A stretch of DNA of 64,000 bases from positions 52,276-116,275 of the forward strand of contig CAYYTH010000002.1 in the NCBI GenBank assembly GCA_964474665.1. Direction: 5' to 3'. Position numbers and translations under genes: made by a program. Within the stretch, counting starts at the first letter, position 1. Each line of letters opens with the position of its first letter. Shown here piece by piece: positions 1-8,974 of this stretch. Under the pieces are notes generated by a model. The model did no database searches. It was not told the origin of the DNA and worked only from the letters and a program-made list of their open reading frames with translations. The DNA is from an uncultured Aestuariivirga sp. (GTDB taxonomy: Bacteria > Pseudomonadota > Alphaproteobacteria > Rhizobiales > Aestuariivirgaceae).

Positions 1-787
1 GGTCGATCGTGACGCCGGCATCGGCGGCGCGCTGCTTGGCGACGCTGTAGTCGCCCGACCAGCTGTTGACGGCACAGACCTCGCCATTGGGCAGCGTGTT
101 GAGATAGTTGGTGTTGTCGAAGGTGGTGATGTAGGGGCGGATCTGCGCGAAGACCTCCGCCATCTTGCTGTATTCATCGGGCCCCGCCGTGTCGGGATCG
201 ATGCCGATGTATTTCAGCACCATGAGGCCGATGTCGGTCGGGCTGTCGAGAATCGAGATGCCGCATTCGGCGAGCACCTTCGCGTTGTCGGGCTTGAAGA
301 TGGTGTCGAGGCTTTCGAGGTCGGCGCCGGGCAGGCGCTGCTTCACCATGTCGAGATTGTAGGTGAAGCCGACCGAGCCCCAGGTGTAAGGCACGCCATA
401 GTCGTTGCCGGGGTCGAAGCCCTGGAGGATGGCGAGGATCTCGGGGTCGAGATTGCCCCAGTTGGTGAGCTTGGCCTTGTCGAGCTTCTGGTAGACCTTG
501 GCCTGGATCATCTGCGGCAGCTTGAGGCCGGACTGCAGCACCACGTCATAGCCCGAGGAGCCGGCCAGCATCTTGGCCTCCATCTCCTCGGAACTCGCAT
601 ACATGTCATAGACCACCTTGATGCCGGTTTCCTTGGTGAAGTCGGCAATCGTGGTCTCGCCGATGTAGTCCGCCCAGTTGTAGACGTTCACCACGCCGGC
701 ATCGGCGCGGGCACGGCGGACATAGGGCATGGCAAGTCCGGCTGCGGCACCCATGGCAGCGAGGGTGTGACGACGACTGAGCTTCAT
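1..787 (-). CDS. Polyamine-type (PotD/PotF family) ABC transporter substrate-binding protein, runs off the left edge
   Basis: My own translation from ATG 787 (not in ORF track): MKLSRRHTLAAMGAAAGLAMPYVRRARADAGVVNVYNWADYIGETTIADFTKETGIKVVYDMYASSEEMEAKMLAGSSGYDVV...YGVPYTWGSVG. These are typical PotD/PotF motifs. RBS-like GGGAGG upstream. Confidence 0.9.
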   Translation of the reverse strand, partial: MKLSRRHTLAAMGAAAGLAMPYVRRARADAGVVNVYNWADYIGETTIADFTKETGIKVVYDMYASSEEMEAKMLAGSSGYDVVLQSGLKLPQMIQAKVYQKLDKAKLTNWGNLDPEILAILQGFDPGNDYGVPYTWGSVGFTYNLDMVKQRLPGADLESLDTIFKPDNAKVLAECGISILDSPTDIGLMVLKYIGIDPDTAGPDEYSKMAEVFAQIRPYITTFDNTNYLNTLPNGEVCAVNSWSGDYSVAKQRAADAGVTID

Positions 788-821
788 GAGTTCCTCCCTT
801 TTGTAATCGTTTCATTCCAGC

Positions 822-2039
822 CTAGAGCGAGTTGGGCGGCTGGCAAATTAATTCTTCATGCAGTTGCGGGAGGCGGTGGCCGGGCGGTTCCTGGGGCAGG
901 GTCATGACCGGGAACAGCCGTCGCAGCCCGTCATGGTGGCGGCGCAGCCCGTATTCGAGGTCGGACAGGTGGAAGCCCTCGAATGCCTCTGATTTCATCG
1001 ACTCGTTGGACCAGATCGAGAGTTGCTGGTCTTCCGCCGAGGTGGCGCGGTCGATGCGGTAGGCCAGATAGCGCGCCAGACGGGTCTGCCGTGTCTCGTC
1101 CGGCCAGCGGTAGAGCCGTCCGGTCAGCCGGGTGCGGCCCGGACCGATCGGGATCTCCTGATAGAACTGCGCCCCTTCTGGCGTGACCGCGAAGACGGCA
1201 TTCGGAAACAGGCCGTAATAGGTCCAGGCCTTTTGCAGATGGGGCGGGAGATCCGGCCGCGGCGGCGAGATCCGGACATAGTTCCGCACCGACCAGCCGC
1301 GGGCCAGGGTGTCGTCATACCAGCCAATCGAGATGGAGAGCCCGTCCCGGAGGTGCATGTCGCGGTAGGTGCGGCCATAGAGTTCCTGCAGGCTCGGATG
1401 GGCGAGCGCGACATGGTAGCCTTCGTTGTCGACATCACGGACCGACTTCCAGTTCACCGGCAGCTCGGAGGTCCAGTCGAGGTTCCGCACCGGCAGCAGC
1501 TTGTCGAGCCCGTAGGCGCTGAAGTCGGCTTCATAGGGCGCCAGCATCGTGGCGACAGAGGGCTGCGGTCCCTCCTTGAAGCGGAGGAAGATGAAGCCGT
1601 GGAAGACTTCCATCTCGATCGGCTTCAGCCCGAAGTCCTCGCGCTTCAGTTCACCGAAGCTCGAGGGCCGTGCCGCGCCGCGCAGCGATCCGTCGAGGTT
1701 GTAGACCCAGCCATGGAACGGACAGACGATGGCACCCTTGCAGTGACCCTTGCTGCCATCGACGACGCGTGCGCCGCGGTGCCGGCAGAGATTGTGGAAG
1801 GCACGCACGACGCCGTCCGCCCCGCGCATGACGACCGCGCGCTCGCCCAGCAGGTCGAAGGCCAGCCAGTCGCCGGCAGCCGGAATGTCGCCCACATGGC
1901 CAACCACCTGCCAGTGGGTGAGGAACAGCTTGTCGCGTTCGAGATCGAACAGCGCGGGTGAATGATAGGTCCAGGCGGGCAGGCCGCCACGGTCCCAGTC
2001 ATTCGGCACGGCAATGGTTTCATAGGGCAGCTGTGTCAT
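822..2039 (-). CDS. Rieske non-heme iron oxygenase alpha subunit (B)
   Basis: Rieske CRH...CPFH; mononuclear Fe region NWKSVRDVDNEGYHVALAHP; distal Asp in EDQQ. Start MTQLPY at 2039 overlaps the upstream stop (ATGA). Confidence 0.92.
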   Translation of the reverse strand: MTQLPYETIAVPNDWDRGGLPAWTYHSPALFDLERDKLFLTHWQVVGHVGDIPAAGDWLAFDLLGERAVVMRGADGVVRAFHNLCRHRGARVVDGSKGHCKGAIVCPFHGWVYNLDGSLRGAARPSSFGELKREDFGLKPIEMEVFHGFIFLRFKEGPQPSVATMLAPYEADFSAYGLDKLLPVRNLDWTSELPVNWKSVRDVDNEGYHVALAHPSLQELYGRTYRDMHLRDGLSISIGWYDDTLARGWSVRNYVRISPPRPDLPPHLQKAWTYYGLFPNAVFAVTPEGAQFYQEIPIGPGRTRLTGRLYRWPDETRQTRLARYLAYRIDRATSAEDQQLSIWSNESMKSEAFEGFHLSDLEYGLRRHHDGLRRLFPVMTLPQEPPGHRLPQLHEELICQPPNSL

Positions 2040-3175
2040 GCGTGTGTCTCCATGTGGTTGAGCACCCACTGGTGAAAGCGATGGATCTCATATTCTTCCG
2101 GCATCAGCCGTGCCGCGCGGAACGCCGGCGAGCGCATGCCGCGCTGGTTCATTTCGGAGGCCTCGCCATCCTGCAGCATCACCGTCTTTGCAAAGGCGGC
2201 GACGGTGGCAGGATCGAAACCGGGACGGGCCAGGGTGTCAGGGCTGAAGTGCCATTCGGCGACGAGCCGCGTGCGTTCGGGTGCGAGCGGCTCGATGCGG
2301 ACCGAGCGCACATAGTCGACATGCGCGACCACATAGGTCGACGGCCACAGCGTGACGAAGCTGTAGCCCGCCATGCGCTCGGCCTCGGTCAGCTTCGGGA
2401 AGACCGGGCCACAGGGCGCCCCGTCGGGCGTCCAGCTTTCCGCGCCGGTCCGGAGATTGGGCAGGACCGTCTCGTCCGGTGTCCAGCCCAGCGCCTCGGA
2501 GGGACCCATGATGCCCTTGCCGTAGATCGGCACCATGTCGCAGAGCTCGGGGTGGATTCCCGGGCAGTGCAGGCATTCGGAGTAATTCTCCCAGAAGGTC
2601 TTCCAGTTGCAGGCGATCTCCGTTTCCCAGTGATGGCCGGTGACGAGGCCGTCCATGGGCCAGTTGTCGAGGGTGCGAAGGCCGACGTCGGCCAGCAGCT
2701 CTCCCGGATCGGGGGCGGCATTGAGAAACAGGAAGCCGTTCCACACGTGCCAGGCAATAGGTTTCAGCCCGTGTGCCGCGCGGTCGAAATCGGCGGTCGG
2801 CACGGCATGTCCGGTGGCCACCAGCGTGCCGTCCGCCGCGGCGAATGCAAAGGCGTGGTAGGGGCAGCGAATGAGCTTGCCGAGAGGTTCCTCGGTTGCC
2901 CTGCAGAGTTCGGAGCCACGGTGCGGGCAACTGTTGTGAAAAGCCGATACCGCACCGTCAGCCGCACGTGCGACAATGACCGATGCCGTGCCGAGCTGCA
3001 CCCGGCGCATGCGGCCCCGCGTGAAATCGGCAAGGCGCCCCACCATGACCCACTGGCGTGCGAAGATCGTGGCCATTTCGCGTGCGAACCAGCCGTCATC
3101 GACATAGGCTTCGCGCGGCAGGCCCTCGGGACAATGTGCGAGGCGCGGCGAAAGCGGGTGGCGTTCCTGTCCCAT
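2036..3175 (-). CDS. Rieske non-heme iron oxygenase alpha subunit (A), GbcA/Stc2/choline monooxygenase-like
   Basis: CPH...CPYH Rieske motif; NWKTFWENYSECLHCPGIHP catalytic motif; distal Asp in QDGEASE. Confidence 0.92.
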   Translation of the reverse strand: MGQERHPLSPRLAHCPEGLPREAYVDDGWFAREMATIFARQWVMVGRLADFTRGRMRRVQLGTASVIVARAADGAVSAFHNSCPHRGSELCRATEEPLGKLIRCPYHAFAFAAADGTLVATGHAVPTADFDRAAHGLKPIAWHVWNGFLFLNAAPDPGELLADVGLRTLDNWPMDGLVTGHHWETEIACNWKTFWENYSECLHCPGIHPELCDMVPIYGKGIMGPSEALGWTPDETVLPNLRTGAESWTPDGAPCGPVFPKLTEAERMAGYSFVTLWPSTYVVAHVDYVRSVRIEPLAPERTRLVAEWHFSPDTLARPGFDPATVAAFAKTVMLQDGEASEMNQRGMRSPAFRAARLMPEEYEIHRFHQWVLNHMETHA

Positions 3176-3244
3176 CGCAGTCTCACCGGCTCCTTCGGCT
3201 GTCTCGGTTGGCGGGTTCGACCATGGCAGGCTGCCATTTGGCTG

Positions 3245-3262
3245 GTTGAATTGTCAATCAAC
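3245..3262. promoter_or_regulatory. Putative TetR/BetI-type operator
   Basis: GTTGAATTGTCAATCAAC: GTTGA-N8-TCAAC inverted repeat with an internal TTGA-N4-TCAA, in the divergent region between Rieske A and TetR. Confidence 0.6.
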
Positions 3263-3325
3263 TTCTTCCCGTTTGCCCTCACGGCCCGATAAGGTAGGTA
3301 TCACGGGACTGAACCGGGGCCCACC

Positions 3326-3994
3326 GTGACCACCACCGCACCGCCACCATCCACACGCGCGCCGCGCACCCTGAGCCGGGATGAGCGCCGTACGCAGCTG
3401 ATCGAAGCGACTCTTGCCACAATCGCGGAATGCGGCTTCTCCCGCACGACCCTCACCGAGGTGGCTCGCCGCGCCGGCCTTTCGCATGGCCTGGTGCTGT
3501 TCCACTTCGAAAGCAAGGAAAGGCTCCTCGCCGAGACGCTCGACTACCTCTCCGACGAATACAAGAACAACTGGCACGCCGCGCTGACCGCCGCAGGCCC
3601 GGCACCCGAACAGCGCCTTGCTGTTCTGGTCGAGGCCGACTTCAACCCGCAGGTCTGCCAGCCAAGCCGGGTCTCGTCATGGCTTGCCTATTGGGGGGAG
3701 AGCCAGAGCCGCCCGCTCTACATGTCCCGCTGCGGCGGCAATGACGAACTCTACATGCGCAGGCTGGAGGGCATCTGCGCCGAGATGAATGCGCAGCATG
3801 GCTATGCCACCGACCCATCGCGTTCGGCGCGCCTCATCCGCATTACCATCGAAGGCACCTGGCTGGAGCTGGTGACCCTGCTCAATCCCTATGACCAGGC
3901 AGAAGCCAAGCGCACCGTCTGGACCTGCGTGAGCCTGCTCTACCCGCGCCACTTCAGTGCCGAGGGTCCGCTCTTCAAAACGGCTCAGGGATAG
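3326..3994 (+). CDS. TetR family transcriptional regulator, BetI-like
   Basis: N-terminal HTH (RRTQLIEATLATIAECGFSRTTLTEVARRAGLSHGLVLFHFESKERLL); BetI-type C-terminal domain; GTG start. Confidence 0.88.
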   Translation: MTTTAPPPSTRAPRTLSRDERRTQLIEATLATIAECGFSRTTLTEVARRAGLSHGLVLFHFESKERLLAETLDYLSDEYKNNWHAALTAAGPAPEQRLAVLVEADFNPQVCQPSRVSSWLAYWGESQSRPLYMSRCGGNDELYMRRLEGICAEMNAQHGYATDPSRSARLIRITIEGTWLELVTLLNPYDQAEAKRTVWTCVSLLYPRHFSAEGPLFKTAQG

Positions 3995-4545
3995 TACTGG
4001 TCGTCGCCGATGATGGTCCACACCGGCCGCCGCGTCCAGGCTGGGTAGATGCAGTGCTTGAACTTGCAGTTCATCTGGTTGGGGTGCCGCGCCTGCCAGT
4101 TGGTGGCCTCCGCCTGCACGCGCTCCCGCACGGACTCACGCAGCTGGGTGTAGTGCTGGTCGCGCAGCAGTGCCGCGCGCGGATGCCCGCCAGCCGTCGC
4201 CAGTTCGAACCAGAACAGCGCTTTCGCGGGGTCCTGCTTCACGCCGCGGCCGTTGCCATAGAAGCGGCCCGCCATGTACTGCGCATCGGCAAGGCCCTGG
4301 TAGCCCGCCCGCTTGTACCACTCCAGCGCCAGCCGGAAATTGCGCGGCACGCCGAAGCCATCGTCATAGGCAACGGCGAGGCTGTACTGGGCCCAGGGGT
4401 CGCCCCGTTCGGCCAGCGGCTTCAGCAGCGCCACCGCCGCCCCGTACTGGCCGACGCGATAGGCCGACAGCCCCCGCGACAGTTCACCCGCCGCAGCGGG
4501 CTGCAGCCAGGCAAGAAAGGCGAGAACGACGAGAATTCGTTTCAT
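3985..4545 (-). CDS. Secreted Sel1-like repeat protein
   Basis: Signal peptide MKRILVVLAFLAWLQPAAA; Sel1 repeats (AQYSLAVAYDDGFGVPRNFRLALEWYKRAG, AQYMAGRFYGNGRGVKQDPAKALFWF). Confidence 0.85.
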   Translation of the reverse strand: MKRILVVLAFLAWLQPAAAGELSRGLSAYRVGQYGAAVALLKPLAERGDPWAQYSLAVAYDDGFGVPRNFRLALEWYKRAGYQGLADAQYMAGRFYGNGRGVKQDPAKALFWFELATAGGHPRAALLRDQHYTQLRESVRERVQAEATNWQARHPNQMNCKFKHCIYPAWTRRPVWTIIGDDQYYP

Positions 4546-4654
4546 CCGGTGTCCGGGAGAATCAGCTTGGGCGGCAGTGTAGCCGGAAATGCGGGAAAAG
4601 GTGAGCGCCGAGGCTGCAATCCTCTGCTTCGCAGGCGCGAGACGAACGGCTTGC

Positions 4655-4697
4655 GTGTTTAGTGATTTCATGTTCAGTAAACAAAATCGCTAAACAC
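4655..4697. promoter_or_regulatory. Putative operator of the dha operon
   Basis: GTGTTTAGTGATTT-N15-AAATCGCTAAACAC (13/14 arm match). AT-rich, ends 15 bp upstream of the dhaL ATG. Confidence 0.6.
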
Positions 4698-4712
4698 AGG
4701 ACCCAGGGCCCC

Positions 4713-5315
4713 ATGGCGCTTCCCCTCGACCTCCTGCTCGACACGCTGTCGGCCCGCATCATCGCCGCCGCCGAAGAACTGACCGACCTCGACTCCGCCA
4801 TCGGCGATGCCGACCACGGCCTCAACATGAAGAGGGGCTTCGAGGCCGTGCAGGCGGAGAAGGCCAATATCCTCGCCAAGCCCGCGGGCGAGGCACTGAA
4901 GAGCATCGGCATGACGCTGGTGATGAAAGTGGGCGGCGCGTCCGGCCCGCTCTACGGCACGCTGTTCATGACGCTGGGCAAGGAACTCCCAGAGAACCCC
5001 ACCCCCGCCGACATCGGCCGCGCGCTGCAGGCCGCCGTCACCGCGCTCAAGGCGCGCGGCAAGGCGGATGTCGGCAACAAGACCATGCTTGACGTGCTGG
5101 GCCCCGTCGCGGCGCATCTCGAATCCGGGCAGGCCAGTTTCGACAGCGTGCGGGCACTGGCCTCCGACAGTGCGAAGGCCACGATCCCGATGAAGGCGAT
5201 CCGCGGCCGGGCCTCCTTCCTCGGTGACCGCTCCATCGGCCACATGGACCCGGGCGCGCGCTCGAGCGAGATCATGATCACCGCGGTCTGCGACGTGCTG
5301 GAGGGAAAGCCATGA
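4713..5315 (+). CDS. dhaL: Dihydroxyacetone kinase ADP-binding subunit DhaL
   Basis: LTDLDSAIGDADHGLNM, GGASGPLYG, GDKTM-like GNKTMLD, GRASFLGDRSIGHMDPGA. Confidence 0.95.
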   Translation: MALPLDLLLDTLSARIIAAAEELTDLDSAIGDADHGLNMKRGFEAVQAEKANILAKPAGEALKSIGMTLVMKVGGASGPLYGTLFMTLGKELPENPTPADIGRALQAAVTALKARGKADVGNKTMLDVLGPVAAHLESGQASFDSVRALASDSAKATIPMKAIRGRASFLGDRSIGHMDPGARSSEIMITAVCDVLEGKP

Positions 5316-5698
5316 CGGTCGGCATCGTCATCGTCTCGCACTCGCCCGATGTGGCGAAGGGTGCCGCCGACATGGTGCGCCAGATGGTCGGCGACGACGT
5401 GCCGCTCGGCTTCTGCGGCGGCAACCCGGATGGCGGGCTCGGCACCAGCGTCGAGAAGATCCTCGCCGCCATCGACGCCGCATGGTCCGAAGATGGCGTG
5501 GCCATTCTCGTCGATCTCGGCGGGGCGGAAACCAACAGCGAGATGGCAGTCGAGATGCTGCCCGACGAACGCCGGAACAGGATCGTCATCTGCAACGCGC
5601 CCGTGGTCGAAGGTGCCGTGATGGCGGCGACGGAGGCCTGGGGCGGCGGCTCGCTGGCCGACGTGAAGCGCACCGCAGAGGAGCTCTCGCCGCAATGA
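5312..5698 (+). CDS. dhaM: PTS-dependent DHA kinase phosphotransferase subunit DhaM (EIIA-Man-like domain only)
   Basis: MTVGIVIVSHS, GGLGTS, ILVDLGGAETNSEMA, NAPVVEGA; 128 aa. Confidence 0.93.
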   Translation: MTVGIVIVSHSPDVAKGAADMVRQMVGDDVPLGFCGGNPDGGLGTSVEKILAAIDAAWSEDGVAILVDLGGAETNSEMAVEMLPDERRNRIVICNAPVVEGAVMAATEAWGGGSLADVKRTAEELSPQ

Positions 5699-5988
5699 GT
5701 GCAACCGCGGAAGGAACGGTGGTCATCACCCATGACGTGGGGCTCCATGCGCGACCCTCCGTCAAGCTCACCAAGCTTGCCAAGGGCTTCGCCTCCACGC
5801 TGGAAATCGCCAGTGCCGCGGAAGGCCCTTGGATCGATGCCAAGAGCATCGTCAAGGTCATGGCGATGAAGGCGAAGCAGCATTCGACACTCTTCGTGCG
5901 CGCCGCAGGTGCCGATGCACAGGCTGCCGTCGATGCCGTCATCGGCCTCGTACGCCGCGACTTCGACGAAGCAGGCGATGGGCACTAG
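5695..5988 (+). CDS. ptsH: HPr family phosphocarrier
   Basis: Start MSATAEG at 5695; GLHARPS (His15 motif); DAKSIVKV (Ser46 region). Confidence 0.92.
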   Translation: MSATAEGTVVITHDVGLHARPSVKLTKLAKGFASTLEIASAAEGPWIDAKSIVKVMAMKAKQHSTLFVRAAGADAQAAVDAVIGLVRRDFDEAGDGH

Positions 5989-7558
5989 CCGCCAGGGCAT
6001 GGGCGCATCGGACGGGCTGTTCCGCGGCCCGGTGCGACGGCTTGGGGGCGTCACGGCCGAGCGGCAGGCGACAGGTGATGCAGGGGCGGAAGGCGCCGCC
6101 CTGCGGGCGGCGGTCGCTGCGGCGATCGCGGATCTCGCGGCGCTCATGGAGCGGGTCGATGGCGAGGCCCAGGACATTCTCGCCTTCCAGGTGGCCATGC
6201 TGGAGGATGATGCGCTCTCGGGCCCTGCCCTTTCCGCCATCGGCGAAGGCGCAGCCGCTCATCACGCCTGGTCCATCGCACTCGACGGCGAGATCGCGGG
6301 CTATGAAACCTCCGACGACGATTATTTCCGCGCCCGTGCCGCCGACCTCCGCGACATCCGCGACCGCGTACTGCGGCATCTTTCCGGCGATGCCTCGACA
6401 CAGGACAACACGGGTGCCGTGCTGGTGGGCGAGGACATTGCCCCCACGACCTTCCTCGAGACCGACTGGCGGGCCGGTGGTGCCATTGCACTGGCAGGCG
6501 GCAGCACCACCAGCCACGTCGCCATGCTGGCCCGGGCCCGCGGCATTCCCATGGTGGTGGGTCTTGGCGAGCTGCCGGCGGAGATCGCGCTGCTCGCCGT
6601 CGATGGCGGCAAGGGGAATGTGCTGATCGATCCAGACGCCGCGCAGTGTGCGGCCTTCGATGCAGCACTTGCCCAGGATGCCCGGGCGCGTGCCGGCGAA
6701 GAGCAGTTCCGCCTGCGGCCCGCCACGCGCCGGAATGGCACGCGCATCGACATTCTCGTCAACGTGGCGGGCGTCGATGAACTCGATCGCATCGATCACG
6801 CCGCCTGCGACGGCATCGGGCTCATGCGCTCCGAATTCCTGTTCCGCGACGGCGCACCACTTCCCGACGAGGAGACGCAATACCGCGCCTACCGCCGCTT
6901 CGTGGAGTGGGCGCAAGGCAGGCCCGTCACCATCCGCACGCTCGACATCGGCGGCGACAAGCCGGTGCGCGGGCTGACACCCGAAGGCGAGGCCAATCCC
7001 TTCCTCGGGCTGCGTGGCGTGCGCCTCACGCTGGCGCGCGAGGACGTGTTCCGCACCCAGCTGCGCGCGCTGGCGCGGGCCGCCGTGCATGGCAATCTCA
7101 AGGTCATGCTGCCGATGGTGACGGTACCGGACGACCTGGCGCGCAGTGCCAGCCTGCTCGAGTCCTGCGTGGCGGAACTCGACTCCCAGGGCATTGCCTT
7201 CCGCAAGCCACCGCTCGGCATCATGGTGGAGGTGCCTGCGGTCGCCGTCATGCCGGAGCTGTTCGGCGCAGCTGCCTTCTTCTCCATCGGCTCCAACGAC
7301 CTCACGCAATATGTGACTGCCTCTTCGCGCGATGATGCGCGCGTCGCAGCCCTCAACGATCCTGCCAACCCGGCCGTCACCGCGCTCATCGCCAAGGTCG
7401 CCGCCTATGGCCGCGAGGCCGGCATCCCGGTCAGCCTGTGCGGCGACATGGCGAGCGAGCCCCGGCATCTCGCCGCCCTTCTCGATGCCGGGCTCACCGC
7501 GCTGTCGGTGGCGCCGGCGCGCATCGCCCGCCTCAAGGCGGCGATCGCGGAGCTCTGA
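5978..7558 (+). CDS. ptsI: PEP-protein phosphotransferase (PTS Enzyme I), no GAF domain
   Basis: TSHVAMLAR phospho-His; DIGGDK; NPFLGLRGVR; FSIGSNDLTQY; CGDMAS. Start inferred at ATG 5978. Confidence 0.92.
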   Translation: MGTSRQGMGASDGLFRGPVRRLGGVTAERQATGDAGAEGAALRAAVAAAIADLAALMERVDGEAQDILAFQVAMLEDDALSGPALSAIGEGAAAHHAWSIALDGEIAGYETSDDDYFRARAADLRDIRDRVLRHLSGDASTQDNTGAVLVGEDIAPTTFLETDWRAGGAIALAGGSTTSHVAMLARARGIPMVVGLGELPAEIALLAVDGGKGNVLIDPDAAQCAAFDAALAQDARARAGEEQFRLRPATRRNGTRIDILVNVAGVDELDRIDHAACDGIGLMRSEFLFRDGAPLPDEETQYRAYRRFVEWAQGRPVTIRTLDIGGDKPVRGLTPEGEANPFLGLRGVRLTLAREDVFRTQLRALARAAVHGNLKVMLPMVTVPDDLARSASLLESCVAELDSQGIAFRKPPLGIMVEVPAVAVMPELFGAAAFFSIGSNDLTQYVTASSRDDARVAALNDPANPAVTALIAKVAAYGREAGIPVSLCGDMASEPRHLAALLDAGLTALSVAPARIARLKAAIAEL

Positions 7559-7559
7559 C

Positions 7560-7994
7560 ATGGCCCTGCCCGCAGCAGGCCAGTCGCCACAGGACGCGGT
7601 CACCGCCTACAAGCGCCTGCTCGCCGCGATCATCGACCGGCGGCCCTCGGGCACCCGCCAGCGGCTGGCCACGGCACTTGCCAAGAACCGCAGCTTCGTC
7701 AGCCAGATCACCAATCCAGCCTATCCGACGCCGATCCCGGCGAGCCATCTCGCGCAGATCTTCGAGGTCTGCCACTTCTCGGGGCCCGAGCGGCAGGAGT
7801 TCACCAGGCTCTATACCCGGGCGCACCCGAAGAAGATGCTGGCCGAGAGCCCCACGCGCATGGCGGCGGCGGTGGATTTGCCCGACCTCGGTGACGAGAC
7901 GAAGAACCGGAAACTGCACGGGCTGGTCAGCGCCTTCGTGCGGGACATTGCAAGGCTGATCGAGGATGATCGCGAGAAAGGGAAACGGCGATGA
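7560..7994 (+). CDS. Hypothetical protein with XRE-like helix-turn-helix
   Basis: ATG 1 bp after the EI stop; stop overlaps the dhaK start (ATGA). RQRLATALAKNRSFVSQITNP resembles an HTH. GC-rich codon usage like its neighbours. Confidence 0.75.
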   Translation: MALPAAGQSPQDAVTAYKRLLAAIIDRRPSGTRQRLATALAKNRSFVSQITNPAYPTPIPASHLAQIFEVCHFSGPERQEFTRLYTRAHPKKMLAESPTRMAAAVDLPDLGDETKNRKLHGLVSAFVRDIARLIEDDREKGKRR

Positions 7995-8970
7995 AGAAGC
8001 TCATCAACGACGTGTCGAACGTGCTGACCGAAAGCCTCGACGGCTTCGTGGCGGCCCATGGCGACATCATCACGCTCGGGGCCGAGCACAAGTTCGTGCA
8101 GCGCAGGGTGCTGAAGCCCGGCAAGGTGGCGCTGCTGTCGGGCGGCGGGTCCGGCCATGAACCGCTGCACGCAGGCTTCGTCGGCCACGGCATGCTTGAT
8201 GCCGCCTGCCCCGGCCAAGTCTTCACCTCGCCCACGCCCGACCAGATGATCGCCGCCGCCGAGGCCGTCGATACGGGCGCGGGCGTGCTGTTCATCGTCA
8301 AGAATTACGAGGGCGACGTCATGAACTTCGACATGGCGCGCGAGATGGCGGGGCGCGACATCGAGACGGTCATCACCGATGACGACGTCGCCGTCGAGAA
8401 TTCGCTCTACACCACCGGCCGCCGCGGCGTCGCCGGCACGCTGGTGGTCGAGAAGGTGGTGGGTGCCGCCGCCGAGCAGGGCGCCGGCCTCGCCTCGCTG
8501 AAGGCGCTGGGCGACAAGGTGAACCGCGCCACGCGCTCGATGGGCGTGGCGCTGACGAGCTGCACCGTGCCCGCCGCAGGCAAGCCCACCTTCGACATCG
8601 GGCCGGCCGACATGGAAATGGGCGTCGGCATCCACGGTGAGCCCGGCCGCCGCCGCGTGACCTTGCGCTCGGCCGACGAGATCGCCGAGGAGATGGTCGC
8701 CGCCATCGCGGGCGACCTCGGGGCGAAAGGCAATGCGCTGCTCTTCGTCAACGGCTTCGGCGGCACGCCGGCGATGGAACTCTACCTCATGTATAATTCC
8801 GCCCGGGCGCAGCTCGCCAAGCACGGCATCACGCCGGTGCGCGCGCTGGTGGGAAGCTACGTCACCTCGCTCGACATGGCGGGCTGTTCGATCACCGTCA
8901 CCCTGCTCGACGACGAGATCGCCAGGGGCTGGGACGCACCGGTGCACACCCCGGCGCTGCGCTGGGGCCT

Positions 8971-8974
<4 letters not shown>
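7991..8974 (+). CDS. dhaK: Dihydroxyacetone kinase substrate-binding subunit DhaK
   Basis: MKKLIN, SGGGSGHEPLHAGFVG, VKNYEGD, GRRGVAG, GIHGEPG, TSLDMAG. Confidence 0.97.

Follow-up and report, generated by a model that had tools for sequence, protein, structure and literature searches.

The gene cluster at the left end of the window (the whole stretch of DNA analysed, 64 kb in length) is a real, conserved variant of group V Rieske amine catabolism that was previously uncharacterised. It recurred in about 70 freshwater alphaproteobacterial genomes, which suggested that it probably encodes an undescribed O2-dependent breakdown route for a polyamine-like amine; no published description of the cluster was found in the literature searched. 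The best explanation of the whole, to which we gave slightly better than even chances, is that the window holds the promoter-proximal end of a catabolic operon. Induced by its substrate, the operon would serve to import a polyamine-like organic cation and oxidize it through the sequential action of two Rieske oxygenases, A and B. The operon would comprise Rieske A, Rieske B, a PotF-type binding protein, an ABC ATPase, and two permeases, joined in relatives by a DddQ/DddL-type cupin.

Rieske A (3175..2036, 379 aa) and Rieske B (2039..822, 405 aa) were located on the minus strand, and both carried the Pfam domains PF00355 (Rieske) and PF00848 (Ring_hydroxyl_A). The ATG of Rieske B overlapped the TGA of Rieske A as ATGA (2036..2039, minus strand), an overlap that, judged by the sequence, couples the translation of the two genes. 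This start was conserved in relatives; the mechanical ORF list instead had a GTG at 2069. Rieske B ended with TAG at 824–822, and a spacer of 34 nt (788..821, minus strand) with the Shine-Dalgarno sequence AAGGGAGGA separated it from the ATG (787–785) of a PotF-family periplasmic binding-protein gene on the same strand. The 5′ part of this gene (1..787, 262 codons) was present, after which it was cut by the left edge of the window. Within 1–4200 the minus strand showed no terminator-like site, and thus none between the operon genes there. On the plus strand, a BetI-like TetR repressor gene (3326..3994, GTG start, 222 aa; Pfam TetR_N and TetR_C_6) diverged from Rieske A across an intergenic region of 150 nt (3176..3325). 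The coupled pair, the binding-protein gene 34 bp downstream, and the divergent repressor had all been reported in the preliminary description, and each was borne out. Strand had been absent from that description and was assigned here for all four genes.

The neighborhood was conserved among relatives, for which only related genomes with enough flank were counted. Rieske A was followed by B in 71 of 75 genomes, and the binding-protein gene came after the pair in 67 of 73 loci; the three genes, the co-occurrence of which had been proposed for checking, therefore travel together. Further downstream the order was ATPase (62/66), two permeases (59/65 and 58/63), and then usually the cupin (45/59), and a TetR gene lay upstream of Rieske A in 45 of 55 loci. 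The preliminary description had also pointed to the sequence beyond the left edge, and there the ATPase, both permeases, and the DMSP-lyase-like cupin were found in relatives, with no reductase within 10 kb.

The two oxygenases shared 26% identity over 364 residues. Their catalytic motifs, said earlier to differ, were found as quoted, with NWKTFWENYSECLHCPGIHP in the translation of A and NWKSVRDVDNEGYHVALAHP in that of B. The previously noted 2Cys/2His and 2His/1Asp ligands were C83, H85, C104, and H107 plus H203, H208, and D336 in A, invariant in 73 orthologues, and C85, H87, C106, and H109 plus H209, H214, and D337 in B, invariant, together with E206, in 72 orthologues. Alignments to CntA and Stc2 placed a Glu at the bridging position in both enzymes (Glu200 in A). 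The bridging Glu205 of CntA is essential; two residues before the bridging Glu, the Va C-N-cleaving enzymes have a Tyr or Phe that orients the quaternary amine, and the Vb demethylating enzymes have an Asn (PMC7948474). At this substrate-orienting position A had a CntA-like Tyr (Tyr198, kept in 72 of 73 orthologues), and B had Asp204, which aligned with CntA Tyr203. By alignment, an Asp at this position is found in no characterised member, and B was placed in an 'Asp-type' clade of CntA-like alpha subunits. Rieske A, by the same comparison, is Stc2/GbcA-like overall yet has the CntA-type Tyr in NWKTFWENYSECLHCPGIHP. Tyr198 of A may make a cation-pi contact with an onium or alkylated ammonium group, and Asp204 of B may bind a primary or secondary amine in its protonated form.

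The best solved relatives were 3n0q and Stc2 for A (E about 1e-34 to 1e-35) and CntA for B (E about 3e-32), in both cases matching mostly over the N-terminal half. These matches, the BetI-like repressor, and the JGI names of some orthologues ('glycine betaine catabolism A' or 'carnitine monooxygenase subunit'; the public product names were generic) would all fit ordinary GbcA/Stc2 and CntA isozymes acting on glycine betaine, proline betaine, or carnitine beside a misleadingly annotated transporter. We consider this improbable. Against the GbcA equivalog model, with its cut-off of 670 bits, A scored 156 bits and B 125 bits; B was 27% identical to annotated cntA, and the best non-orthologous plasmid relatives of A reached 28–35% identity. 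Neither enzyme is, on these scores, an orthologue of GbcA, Stc2, or CntA, so the search for a known-substrate orthologue suggested earlier returned none. Rieske A aligns with the group Vb enzymes Stc2 and GbcA/BmoA, which N-demethylate proline betaine and glycine betaine (PDB 3vca and 3n0q), in the NWK..WEN..ECxHC...HP motif and around the Asp ligand; it has, however, Tyr198 in place of their Asn, and the uptake system of the cluster is PotF-type instead of one with a betaine-binding protein. CntA (carnitine monooxygenase, group Va, PDB 6y8j) is likewise a beta-less alpha subunit with its bridging Glu two residues past the orienting position, and Rieske A shares its Tyr203-position Tyr and ECxHC motif, whereas Rieske B has Asp instead of Tyr and the transporter alongside is PotF-type. 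Its hydroxylation next to the nitrogen, followed by C-N cleavage, provides the model for the steps proposed here (PMC7948474).

RefSeq product names would make A and B alpha subunits of aromatic ring-hydroxylating dioxygenases, a very unlikely assignment. Pfam Ring_hydroxyl_A covers both proteins, and benzoate, anthranilate, and phenylpropionate dioxygenase models matched, but weakly (45–81 bits against cut-offs of 670–830). The Glu at the CntA Glu205 position and the closeness to CntA and Stc2 among solved structures argue against it, as does a neighborhood of amine uptake and C1 metabolism that lacks beta-subunit, ferredoxin, and ring-cleavage genes. A sequence-motif scan and the ORF map of the 64-kb window revealed neither a beta-subunit gene nor a plant-type-ferredoxin/FNR-type reductase, in agreement with what the preliminary description had said of the adjacent genes. 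Among 80 loci, none had a reductase or ferredoxin gene within 10 kb, including any GbcB/CntB-type reductase beside the pair, which sets the cluster apart from GbcAB, CntAB, and Stc2/3/4, where the partners are encoded alongside. The lack of a GbcB/CntB-type neighbor also tells against betaine or carnitine isozymes. It is equally a point against the preferred operon reading, in which A and B would draw their electrons from a reductase encoded at some other locus.

The importer points to a polyamine-like substrate, as had been suggested earlier. The binding-protein fragment matched Pfam SBP_bac_8 (4e-21), SBP_bac_1, and the NCBIfam PotF model (233 bits), and its signal peptide had a twin-arginine-like SRRH motif. 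A full-length orthologue was ~50% identical to the SpuD, SpuE, and PotF structures (E about 1e-102 to 1e-105), and relatives had the same order of binding protein, ATPase, and two permeases as PotFGHI/SpuDEFGH. For the binding-site comparison we used what we take to be the PotF diamine-site residue numbers. Equivalents of W37, D39, Y40, W244, D247, D278, and Y314 were invariant in 65 cluster-linked orthologues, which on this numbering indicates that the acidic and aromatic diamine-binding residues (Trp, Tyr, and Asp) of PotF are retained; this, too, speaks against the betaine or carnitine isozymes. The cluster protein differed from PotF in falling under the equivalog cut-off (344 bits for the full-length orthologue against 636) and in two family-specific changes fixed in 65 of 65 orthologues, E185 to D and F276 to W, the Trp being as in SpuE. 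The importer also differs from PotFGHI/SpuDEFGH in being embedded in an oxygenase operon. A PotFGHI-type system of this kind would take up the amine before the oxygenase steps.

Two arrangements of A and B were considered, since the preliminary description had left both a two-step and a heteromeric pathway standing. The pair might form one obligate hetero-oligomer, for example a stacked A3B3, with a single reaction or a channelled intermediate. Tight coupling would fit this, as the overlap was 4 nt in 66 of 72 pairs and 1 nt in 4 more; mean column identity to the window protein was 0.74 in each family; and tandem Rieske pairs recur independently, as shown by a TetR-Rieske fusion with a second Rieske gene 15 nt later in at least 23 contigs. 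However, Rieske A occurred without B in six loci (L032, L064, L075, L076, L084, and L086), also alongside the cupin, and B-only clusters were found in Shinella, Ensifer, and Rhizobium, the Shinella one with FADox1/2, GcvT-like, and TetR genes. In Parasedimentitalea, ABC transporter genes lay between a B-like gene and a Tyr-type Rieske gene. The catalytic sites of A and B were both complete, and the characterised group V enzyme CntA is an alpha3 homotrimer (PMC7948474). The A-only and B-only clusters make two sequential enzymes likelier than an obligate heteromer, which we regard as possible but unlikely; the heteromeric part of the earlier proposal thus lost ground, and its polyamine-like and N-methyl themes gained support.

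In the preferred two-step reading, A and B would be separate homotrimeric, beta-less group V monooxygenases catalyzing successive steps. The caffeine N-demethylases NdmA and NdmB are a likeness, being two paralogous beta-less Rieske monooxygenases that act in turn on different N-linked carbons of one substrate. They differ in having a reductase of their own, NdmD, and in acting on purine alkaloids, and the match of Rieske B to them was very remote (E about 1e-4). Each Rieske enzyme of the cluster would hydroxylate a carbon adjoining nitrogen, either that of an N-methyl group or one in the chain, alpha to an ammonium or onium group, and the C-N bond would break via an unstable carbinolamine. 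The chemistry proposed for A, B, and the cupin is drawn wholly from characterised relatives.

The cupin beyond the left edge likely changes the pathway from that envisaged in the preliminary description. It matched Pfam DMSP_lyase (66–96 bits) and DddQ structures (E about 1e-8), and its HxHxxxExY lyase motif (His-x-His-x3-Glu-x-Tyr) was intact in 45 of 47 sequences, with the distal His also kept, as in DddQ/DddL. It differs from these in an N-terminal extension of ~110–120 residues, its freshwater hosts, and the polyamine-type importer alongside. Its predicted lyase role would be to act, much as DMSP lyases do, by beta-elimination on a carbonyl product with a beta-ammonio or beta-sulfonio group. 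Such a cupin sits poorly with a simple diamine that carries no methyl groups, putrescine for example. Candidate substrates would be an aminopropyl polyamine (e.g., spermidine or norspermidine), an N-methylated diamine or polyamine, or a mixed amine/onium dication. The N-methyl theme drew support from THF-dependent GcvT-like, OYE-type demethylase-like, MttB, and SoxBA genes in related clusters.

A Rieske-type putrescine 2-hydroxylase is reportedly present in Betaproteobacteria. With this precedent, A and B might modify a polyamine (e.g., by C-hydroxylation) for remodelling or secondary-metabolite synthesis rather than for breakdown, and some clusters held a SAM methyltransferase, while the aminotransferase resembled the guanitoxin biosynthetic GntE (428 bits, cut-off 525). 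We hold this to be quite unlikely. Only 12 of 53 loci had the methyltransferase; the oxygenase genes share an operon, controlled by a TetR repressor, with those of a high-affinity importer; and the lyase-type cupin, amine oxidoreductase-like flavoproteins, THF C1-capture protein, and amidohydrolase form a catabolic pattern. Rhodobacterales versions of the cluster carried a class III aminotransferase, two CrtI-like FAD oxidoreductases, a GcvT-like THF protein, and an amidohydrolase. The GcvT-like, FAD oxidoreductase, and aminotransferase genes were absent from the Aestuariivirga-type cluster, and a pathway derived from the Rhodobacterales may therefore not transfer to it.

The repressor resembled BetI, the TetR repressor that responds to choline, in its TetR_N and BetI-type C-terminal domains and in its divergent position beside amine-catabolic genes; it differed in falling under the equivalog cut-off (105 against 201 bits) and in the absence of betA and betB. 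The TetR_N plus TetR_C_6 pair was also found fused to B-like oxygenases elsewhere. In an alignment of nine Aestuariivirga-type intergenic regions (mean identity 62% over the whole), invariant columns were concentrated in the block 3228..3267, AAGAAGTTGATTGACAnTTCAACCAGnCAAATGGCAGCCT on the operon strand. There was no consensus sigma-70 promoter in 3176..3325, and the block, which includes TTGACA and a TTGA..TCAA dyad, is a candidate TetR operator and promoter. The repressor would sit on it and be released once the amine or a product of it is present.

Two Rieske oxygenase genes, A and B, lay next to each other on the minus strand near the left edge of the window. Gene A (3175..2036) encoded 379 aa and gene B (2039..822, with its TAG stop at 824-822) encoded 405 aa. 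Both products carried the Pfam domains PF00355 (Rieske) and PF00848 (Ring_hydroxyl_A), and they were 26% identical to each other. The ATGA at 2039-2036 was common to the TGA of A and the ATG of B, and a GGAG was present within the 3' end of A, before the start of B. On the same strand, the binding protein gene (Pfam SBP_bac_8/1) followed B after a 34-nt spacer that held AAGGGAGGA; it began at 787 and was truncated by the window edge, with 262 codons present. No terminator-like site was found between these three minus-strand genes. The TetR gene (3326-3994) was located on the strand opposite to A, at a distance of 150 nt, and encoded 222 aa with TetR_N and a BetI-type C-terminal domain. Neither the motif scan nor the ORF map revealed a gene recognisable as a beta subunit, ferredoxin or reductase in the 64-kb window, the rest of which comprised housekeeping-like genes, as judged from the first residues of the ORFs. 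The preliminary description had reported a tandem coupled Rieske pair with a PotD/PotF-family binder and a divergent BetI-like TetR, and no ferredoxin, reductase or beta subunit adjacent to it. Every particular was borne out, since the coordinates, the Pfam domains and the window scan all agreed.

Among the 120 best database matches, the orthologues of A were 73-99% identical. A scan with one genome per species yielded 80 loci with A at 65-84% identity; the named records included Aestuariivirga, Tabrizicola, Fuscovulum blasticum, Gemmobacter and Cypionkella, and many of the others were lake MAGs. Reference proteins were mapped on the 80 loci by tblastn, and only loci with enough flank were counted for each neighbour. 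B followed A in 71 of 75 loci and the PotF-type binding protein was near A in 67 of 73, and so the co-occurrence that the preliminary description had put forward for checking was found across genomes. Also near A were an ABC ATPase (62/66), permease 1 (59/65), permease 2 (58/63), a cupin of the DMSP-lyase family (45/59), an amidohydrolase (40/57) and a SAM methyltransferase (12/53). Upstream of A, there were the TetR (45/55), a class III aminotransferase (33/57), two CrtI-like FAD oxidoreductases (FADox1, 32/60; FADox2, 35/65) and a GcvT-like protein (40/75). The minimal form was the Aestuariivirga type, in the order of TetR and divergent A-B-binding protein-ATPase-permease-permease-cupin. The window cluster belonged to this type and showed 84% identity to A. 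litoralis. Sequences matching the window occurred in metagenomes from lakes, groundwater, wastewater and bioreactors.

Contigs on which the B protein was identical or A was 99% identical ended ~150-450 nt into the next gene. Five independent metagenome assemblies of the same or a near-identical strain (L002, L003, L004, L005, and L007) stopped ~150 nt into the ABC ATPase gene, left of the window, and L001, from the same or a near-identical strain, stopped ~450 nt into it. The breaks in L001-L007 were probably caused by a conserved ATPase stretch that is common to paralogues and breaks short-read assembly. Because the same-strain contigs stopped short left of the window, Aestuariivirga litoralis and Fuscovulum supplied the operon context. 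In the divergent intergenic region between A and TetR, a 40-nt block (3228-3267) was nearly invariant among nine Aestuariivirga-type loci, and the whole intergenic region was 62% identical. The block held TTGACA and a TTGA..TCAA dyad, and an inverted-repeat finder detected no repeat in the region. We regard 3228-3267 as a candidate operator and promoter, with cross-genome conservation as the sole basis for the operator.

The ligand residues of both oxygenases were completely conserved in the alignments: C83, H85, C104, H107, H203, H208, and D336 of A in 73 orthologues, and C85, H87, C106, H109, H209, H214, and D337 of B in 72 orthologues. The Asp ligands (D336 and D337) were assigned by alignment to 3n0q/Stc2 and by the pairwise alignment of A and B. 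Neither protein appears to resemble a degenerate structural partner. The closest solved structures by sequence were 3n0q and Stc2 for A (~1e-35) and CntA for B (3e-32). Against the GbcA equivalog (NF058607), A scored 156 bits and B 125 bits, both below the curated cut-off of 670. B was 27% identical to an annotated cntA and had Asp in place of the Tyr203 of CntA, and the motif scan within 10 kb in 80 loci detected no reductase of the CntB type (FMN/2Fe-2S). The best non-orthologous plasmid relatives of A were 28-35% identical. The pathway had been proposed as uncharacterised, and neither A nor B was an orthologue of a characterised member. No beta-subunit gene was found in the window or in the related loci.

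Group V Rieske oxygenases act on quaternary amines and are alpha3 homotrimers without a beta subunit; a bridging Glu (E205 in CntA), rather than Asp, stands three residues before the first iron-binding His, and its mutation in CntA abolished activity (Quareshy et al., 2021; PMC7948474). In subgroup Va (CntA, choline monooxygenases, and OxyBAC), a Tyr or Phe two residues before the bridging Glu orients the substrate through a cation-pi contact, and in subgroup Vb (GbcA, BmoA, and Stc2), which carries out N-demethylation, this position is occupied by Asn (PMC7948474). The aligned motifs at the bridging Glu were DNYMECYH in CntA, ENNRECYH in Stc2 and 3n0q, ENYSECLH in A, and DVDNEGYH in B. Glu200 of A and Glu206 of B aligned with Glu205 of CntA, and Glu206 was invariant in the 72 B orthologues. 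At the position of CntA Tyr203, A had Tyr198 (72 Tyr and one Phe among 73 orthologues), a Va-type Tyr on a Vb-like backbone. B had Asp204 at this position, invariant in 72 orthologues, which is neither Tyr/Phe nor Asn and is absent from the characterised group V members given in that study (PMC7948474). Relatives of B were sought exhaustively among 1.84 billion representative proteins. Of the best 150 (P0241-P0390), those with a readable motif had Asp in 50 cases, Tyr in 30, Phe in 7 and Asn in 2. Judged by this motif, B falls in a large Asp-type clade, D[VI]DNEGYH, without characterised members. Both A and B are predicted to be group V-like in their working, with B missing one defining feature of both subgroups.

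The two genes were also found apart. A was present without B in five loci (L075, L076, L084, L086, and L064) of Hyphomicrobiales and Aestuariivirga MAGs, and a short DMSP-lyase-like cupin was nearby in all of these except L084. L076 also contained an EamA exporter, an amidase, an Fe-alcohol dehydrogenase, MttB, a P450 and the sarcosine oxidase SoxBA. A B orthologue (58-61% identical) was found without A on plasmids of Shinella, Ensifer and Rhizobium. The Shinella cluster (L090/L092; Shinella zoogloeoides plasmid NZ_CP086611.1, ~275-291 kb) carried FADox1 (73% identical to the Fuscovulum protein), FADox2 (46% identity), the GcvT-like protein (56%) and TetR (46%); the TetR was again BetI-like. 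It also had an OYE-type flavin oxidoreductase, and its binding protein was a different PotD-family member, 24% identical. In Parasedimentitalea marina pW43C (L093), a B-like and a Tyr-type Rieske gene were located in one cluster, with ABC transporter genes between them. The clusters with a B-like gene and no A (Shinella and L093) had two CrtI-like FAD oxidoreductases, a GcvT-like protein, an OYE-type protein, an aminotransferase and a different PotD-family importer, and they looked like a related N-dealkylation pathway. The cupin tracked with A, and B tracked with a different module (FADox1/FADox2 and the GcvT-like protein). The strongly conserved junction, with an overlap of 4 nt in 66 of 72 pairs and 1 nt in four more, would be in keeping with A and B forming a hetero-oligomer. 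However, each of them occurs independently of the other, and we consider such a complex unlikely. Their independent occurrence favoured a scheme in which two enzymes act one after the other, in the manner of the Rieske enzymes NdmA and NdmB. The proposal of a two-step or heteromeric route for a polyamine-like or N-methylated amine thus kept its sequential half, which the A-only and B-only loci favoured, and its heteromeric half became less favoured.

In most relatives, the operon ended beyond the window's left edge with a cupin of 280-300 aa (for example, L009:16354-17253 and L008:16383-17234). It scored 66-73 bits against Pfam DMSP_lyase (PF16867; cut-off 27), and the short paralogue scored 96 bits. 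It aligned with the DddQ structures 4b29 and 5cu1 (E ~1e-8) and had an N-terminal extension of ~110-120 residues without a Pfam match. The motif HxHxxxExY was kept in 45 of 47 sequences together with a distal His; we take these to be the metal ligands and the catalytic Tyr of cupin DMSP lyases. A lyase-type cupin suggests, by analogy, that the pathway may include, as a late step, beta-elimination from a carbonyl compound bearing a beta-onium or beta-ammonio group. The relatives that carry the cupin are mostly freshwater bacteria, which are not expected to meet DMSP, and the cluster offers this family a possible non-DMSP role in fresh water.

The full-length binding protein of A. litoralis was ~50% identical to SpuD and SpuE of P. 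aeruginosa and PotF of E. coli (E ~1e-102 to 1e-105). Against the PotF equivalog (NF007962; cut-off 636 bits), the window fragment scored 233 bits and the full-length orthologue 344 bits, and the protein is assigned by these comparisons to the PotF family, not to the PotF equivalog. In 65 cluster-linked orthologues, the residues aligned with W37, D39, Y40, W244, D247, D278, and Y314 of PotF were invariant; we take this numbering to be that of the aromatic and acidic residues holding the two ammonium groups in the PotF structure. Two replacements were fixed in 65 of 65, Glu185 to Asp and Phe276 to Trp, the latter as in SpuE. The acidic clamps at both ends of the site point to a polyamine-like dication as the ligand rather than to a betaine, which is zwitterionic. 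We infer that the shortened carboxylate and the extra Trp would suit a bulkier, e.g., alkylated, group at that end. The TetR scored 105 bits against the BetI equivalog (TIGR03384), below the cut-off of 201.3, and its BetI-type C-terminal Pfam domain scored 39.5 bits against a cut-off of 27. The importer was also considered as the DMSP ABC transporter DmpXWV, and this was rejected because DmpX is compared with binding proteins of the OpuAC domain (pfam04069; PMC10030565).

A linked reductase was consistently absent from the A/B cluster, in contrast to GbcAB, CntAB and Stc2/3/4. Within 10 kb of A in the 80 loci, the motif scan detected no ORF combining a plant-type ferredoxin motif with FNR motifs (RxYS or GxGxxP); the scan was made by motif and not by profile, so that a reductase of atypical sequence could have escaped it. 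Single ferredoxin or Rieske motifs near these loci were scattered and without synteny. There was no annotated reductase in the first 50 kb of the cluster-bearing 169-kb plasmid of F. ytuae. The consistent absence implies that electrons come from a shared reductase acting in trans. The missing reductase is the weakest point of any functional model for the cluster.

The cluster is most simply read as a catabolic operon for a polyamine-like cation under TetR control. The cation would enter via the PotF-type system, A and B would oxidise it as two independent group V monooxygenases at the carbons adjoining nitrogen, and the cupin lyase would then work on the product. In the Rhodobacterales, C1 and amino groups would be handled by the GcvT-like protein, the flavoproteins and the transaminase. 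Three kinds of candidate substrate were proposed. The first is an aminopropyl polyamine such as spermidine or norspermidine, which would fit because oxidation turns its aminopropyl end into a beta-ammonio aldehyde or acid, prone to beta-elimination. The second is N-methylated di- or polyamines, which would account for the THF, OYE and MttB neighbours. The third is a mixed amine/onium dication. A B homologue of Burkholderia, examined for a comparison with putrescine hydroxylase, was set aside as not relevant since it is CntA-like and has its own PDR-type reductase and semialdehyde dehydrogenase.

A fuller version of this catabolic reading, which we advance tentatively and with more doubt than confidence, is an unrecognised oxygenase-dependent route for (methylated) polyamines, common in freshwater Alphaproteobacteria, via B, A, the cupin and an unlinked reductase. 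Here B, as a new Asp-type Rieske class, would attack the carbon next to a protonated amine, and A, as the Tyr-type enzyme, would attack the alkylated or onium end. The cupin would catalyse a reaction analogous to DMSP cleavage, with nitrogen in place of sulfur, giving acrylate or acrolein and a shorter amine, and the electrons would be delivered by the shared unlinked reductase.

At least 16 of the 150 best representative relatives of B were 550-630 aa long. Five of these (P0249, P0252, P0254, P0273, and P0318) were scanned with Pfam, and all had TetR_N fused ahead of the Rieske oxygenase; a BetI-type C-terminal domain was found in four of the five. One fusion (loci L095-L097; L095:8001-9872) was present on at least 23 contigs, which indicated that it was not an assembly artefact. 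A second Rieske oxygenase of 408 aa was located 15 nt downstream (L095:9887-11113; also in L096 and L097), and both proteins at L095 had the Tyr-type motif DWKNVMDNYLEGYH. No reductase was adjacent to this pair in L095-L097. The fusions provided an independent link between the regulator type and the oxygenase type of the window, and the second Rieske gene indicated that tandem Rieske pairs recur independently. The fusion of a transcription-factor domain to an oxygenase is unusual and may have a sensor-enzyme role. If the fuller polyamine route were true, the BetI-type TetR fused to B-like oxygenases in other bacteria would be a one-polypeptide sensor-enzyme for the same compound class.

As a source of labile nitrogen in lakes and soils, polyamines are of major importance, and the bacterial routes described for them comprise gamma-glutamylation, transaminases, acetylation, and flavin and haem dehydrogenases. 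To our knowledge, no Rieske-oxygenase route for polyamines has been described. Literature searches gave no description of the cluster, and the database names of A and B were generic or conflicting. Group V Rieske amine oxygenases are known; the unusual features here are that a Tyr-type enzyme is paired with an Asp-type one, that uptake is of the polyamine type, that a DMSP-lyase-like cupin is present and that a linked reductase is missing. Typical freshwater Rhodobacterales (Tabrizicola, Fuscovulum, Gemmobacter, and Cypionkella) share the conserved cluster with Aestuariivirga, and the two enzyme types side by side give a handle on substrate choice by group V Rieske enzymes. Current annotation places such genes variously under "aromatic ring-hydroxylating dioxygenase," "gbcA" or "carnitine monooxygenase," which would distort metagenomic estimates of how much betaine, carnitine or aromatic compound is degraded.

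The only run labelled as RNA-Seq (X17) gave one 10.5-kb contig with a flat depth of 10.9 on window 1-8000; it was rejected as expression evidence because the flat depth pointed to a run that was probably DNA or heavily DNA-contaminated. On the other side of TetR, a Sel1-repeat gene (3985-4671, minus strand) converged on it, the 3' ends of the mechanical ORFs overlapping by 10 nt, and this neighbour was also found in A. litoralis. It was followed at ~4660-8974 by a PTS-dependent dihydroxyacetone kinase locus comprising Dak2, EIIA-Man, HPr, an enzyme I-like gene and Dak1. The last two were separated by a 144-aa ORF, which had no Pfam match and was kept in A. litoralis.
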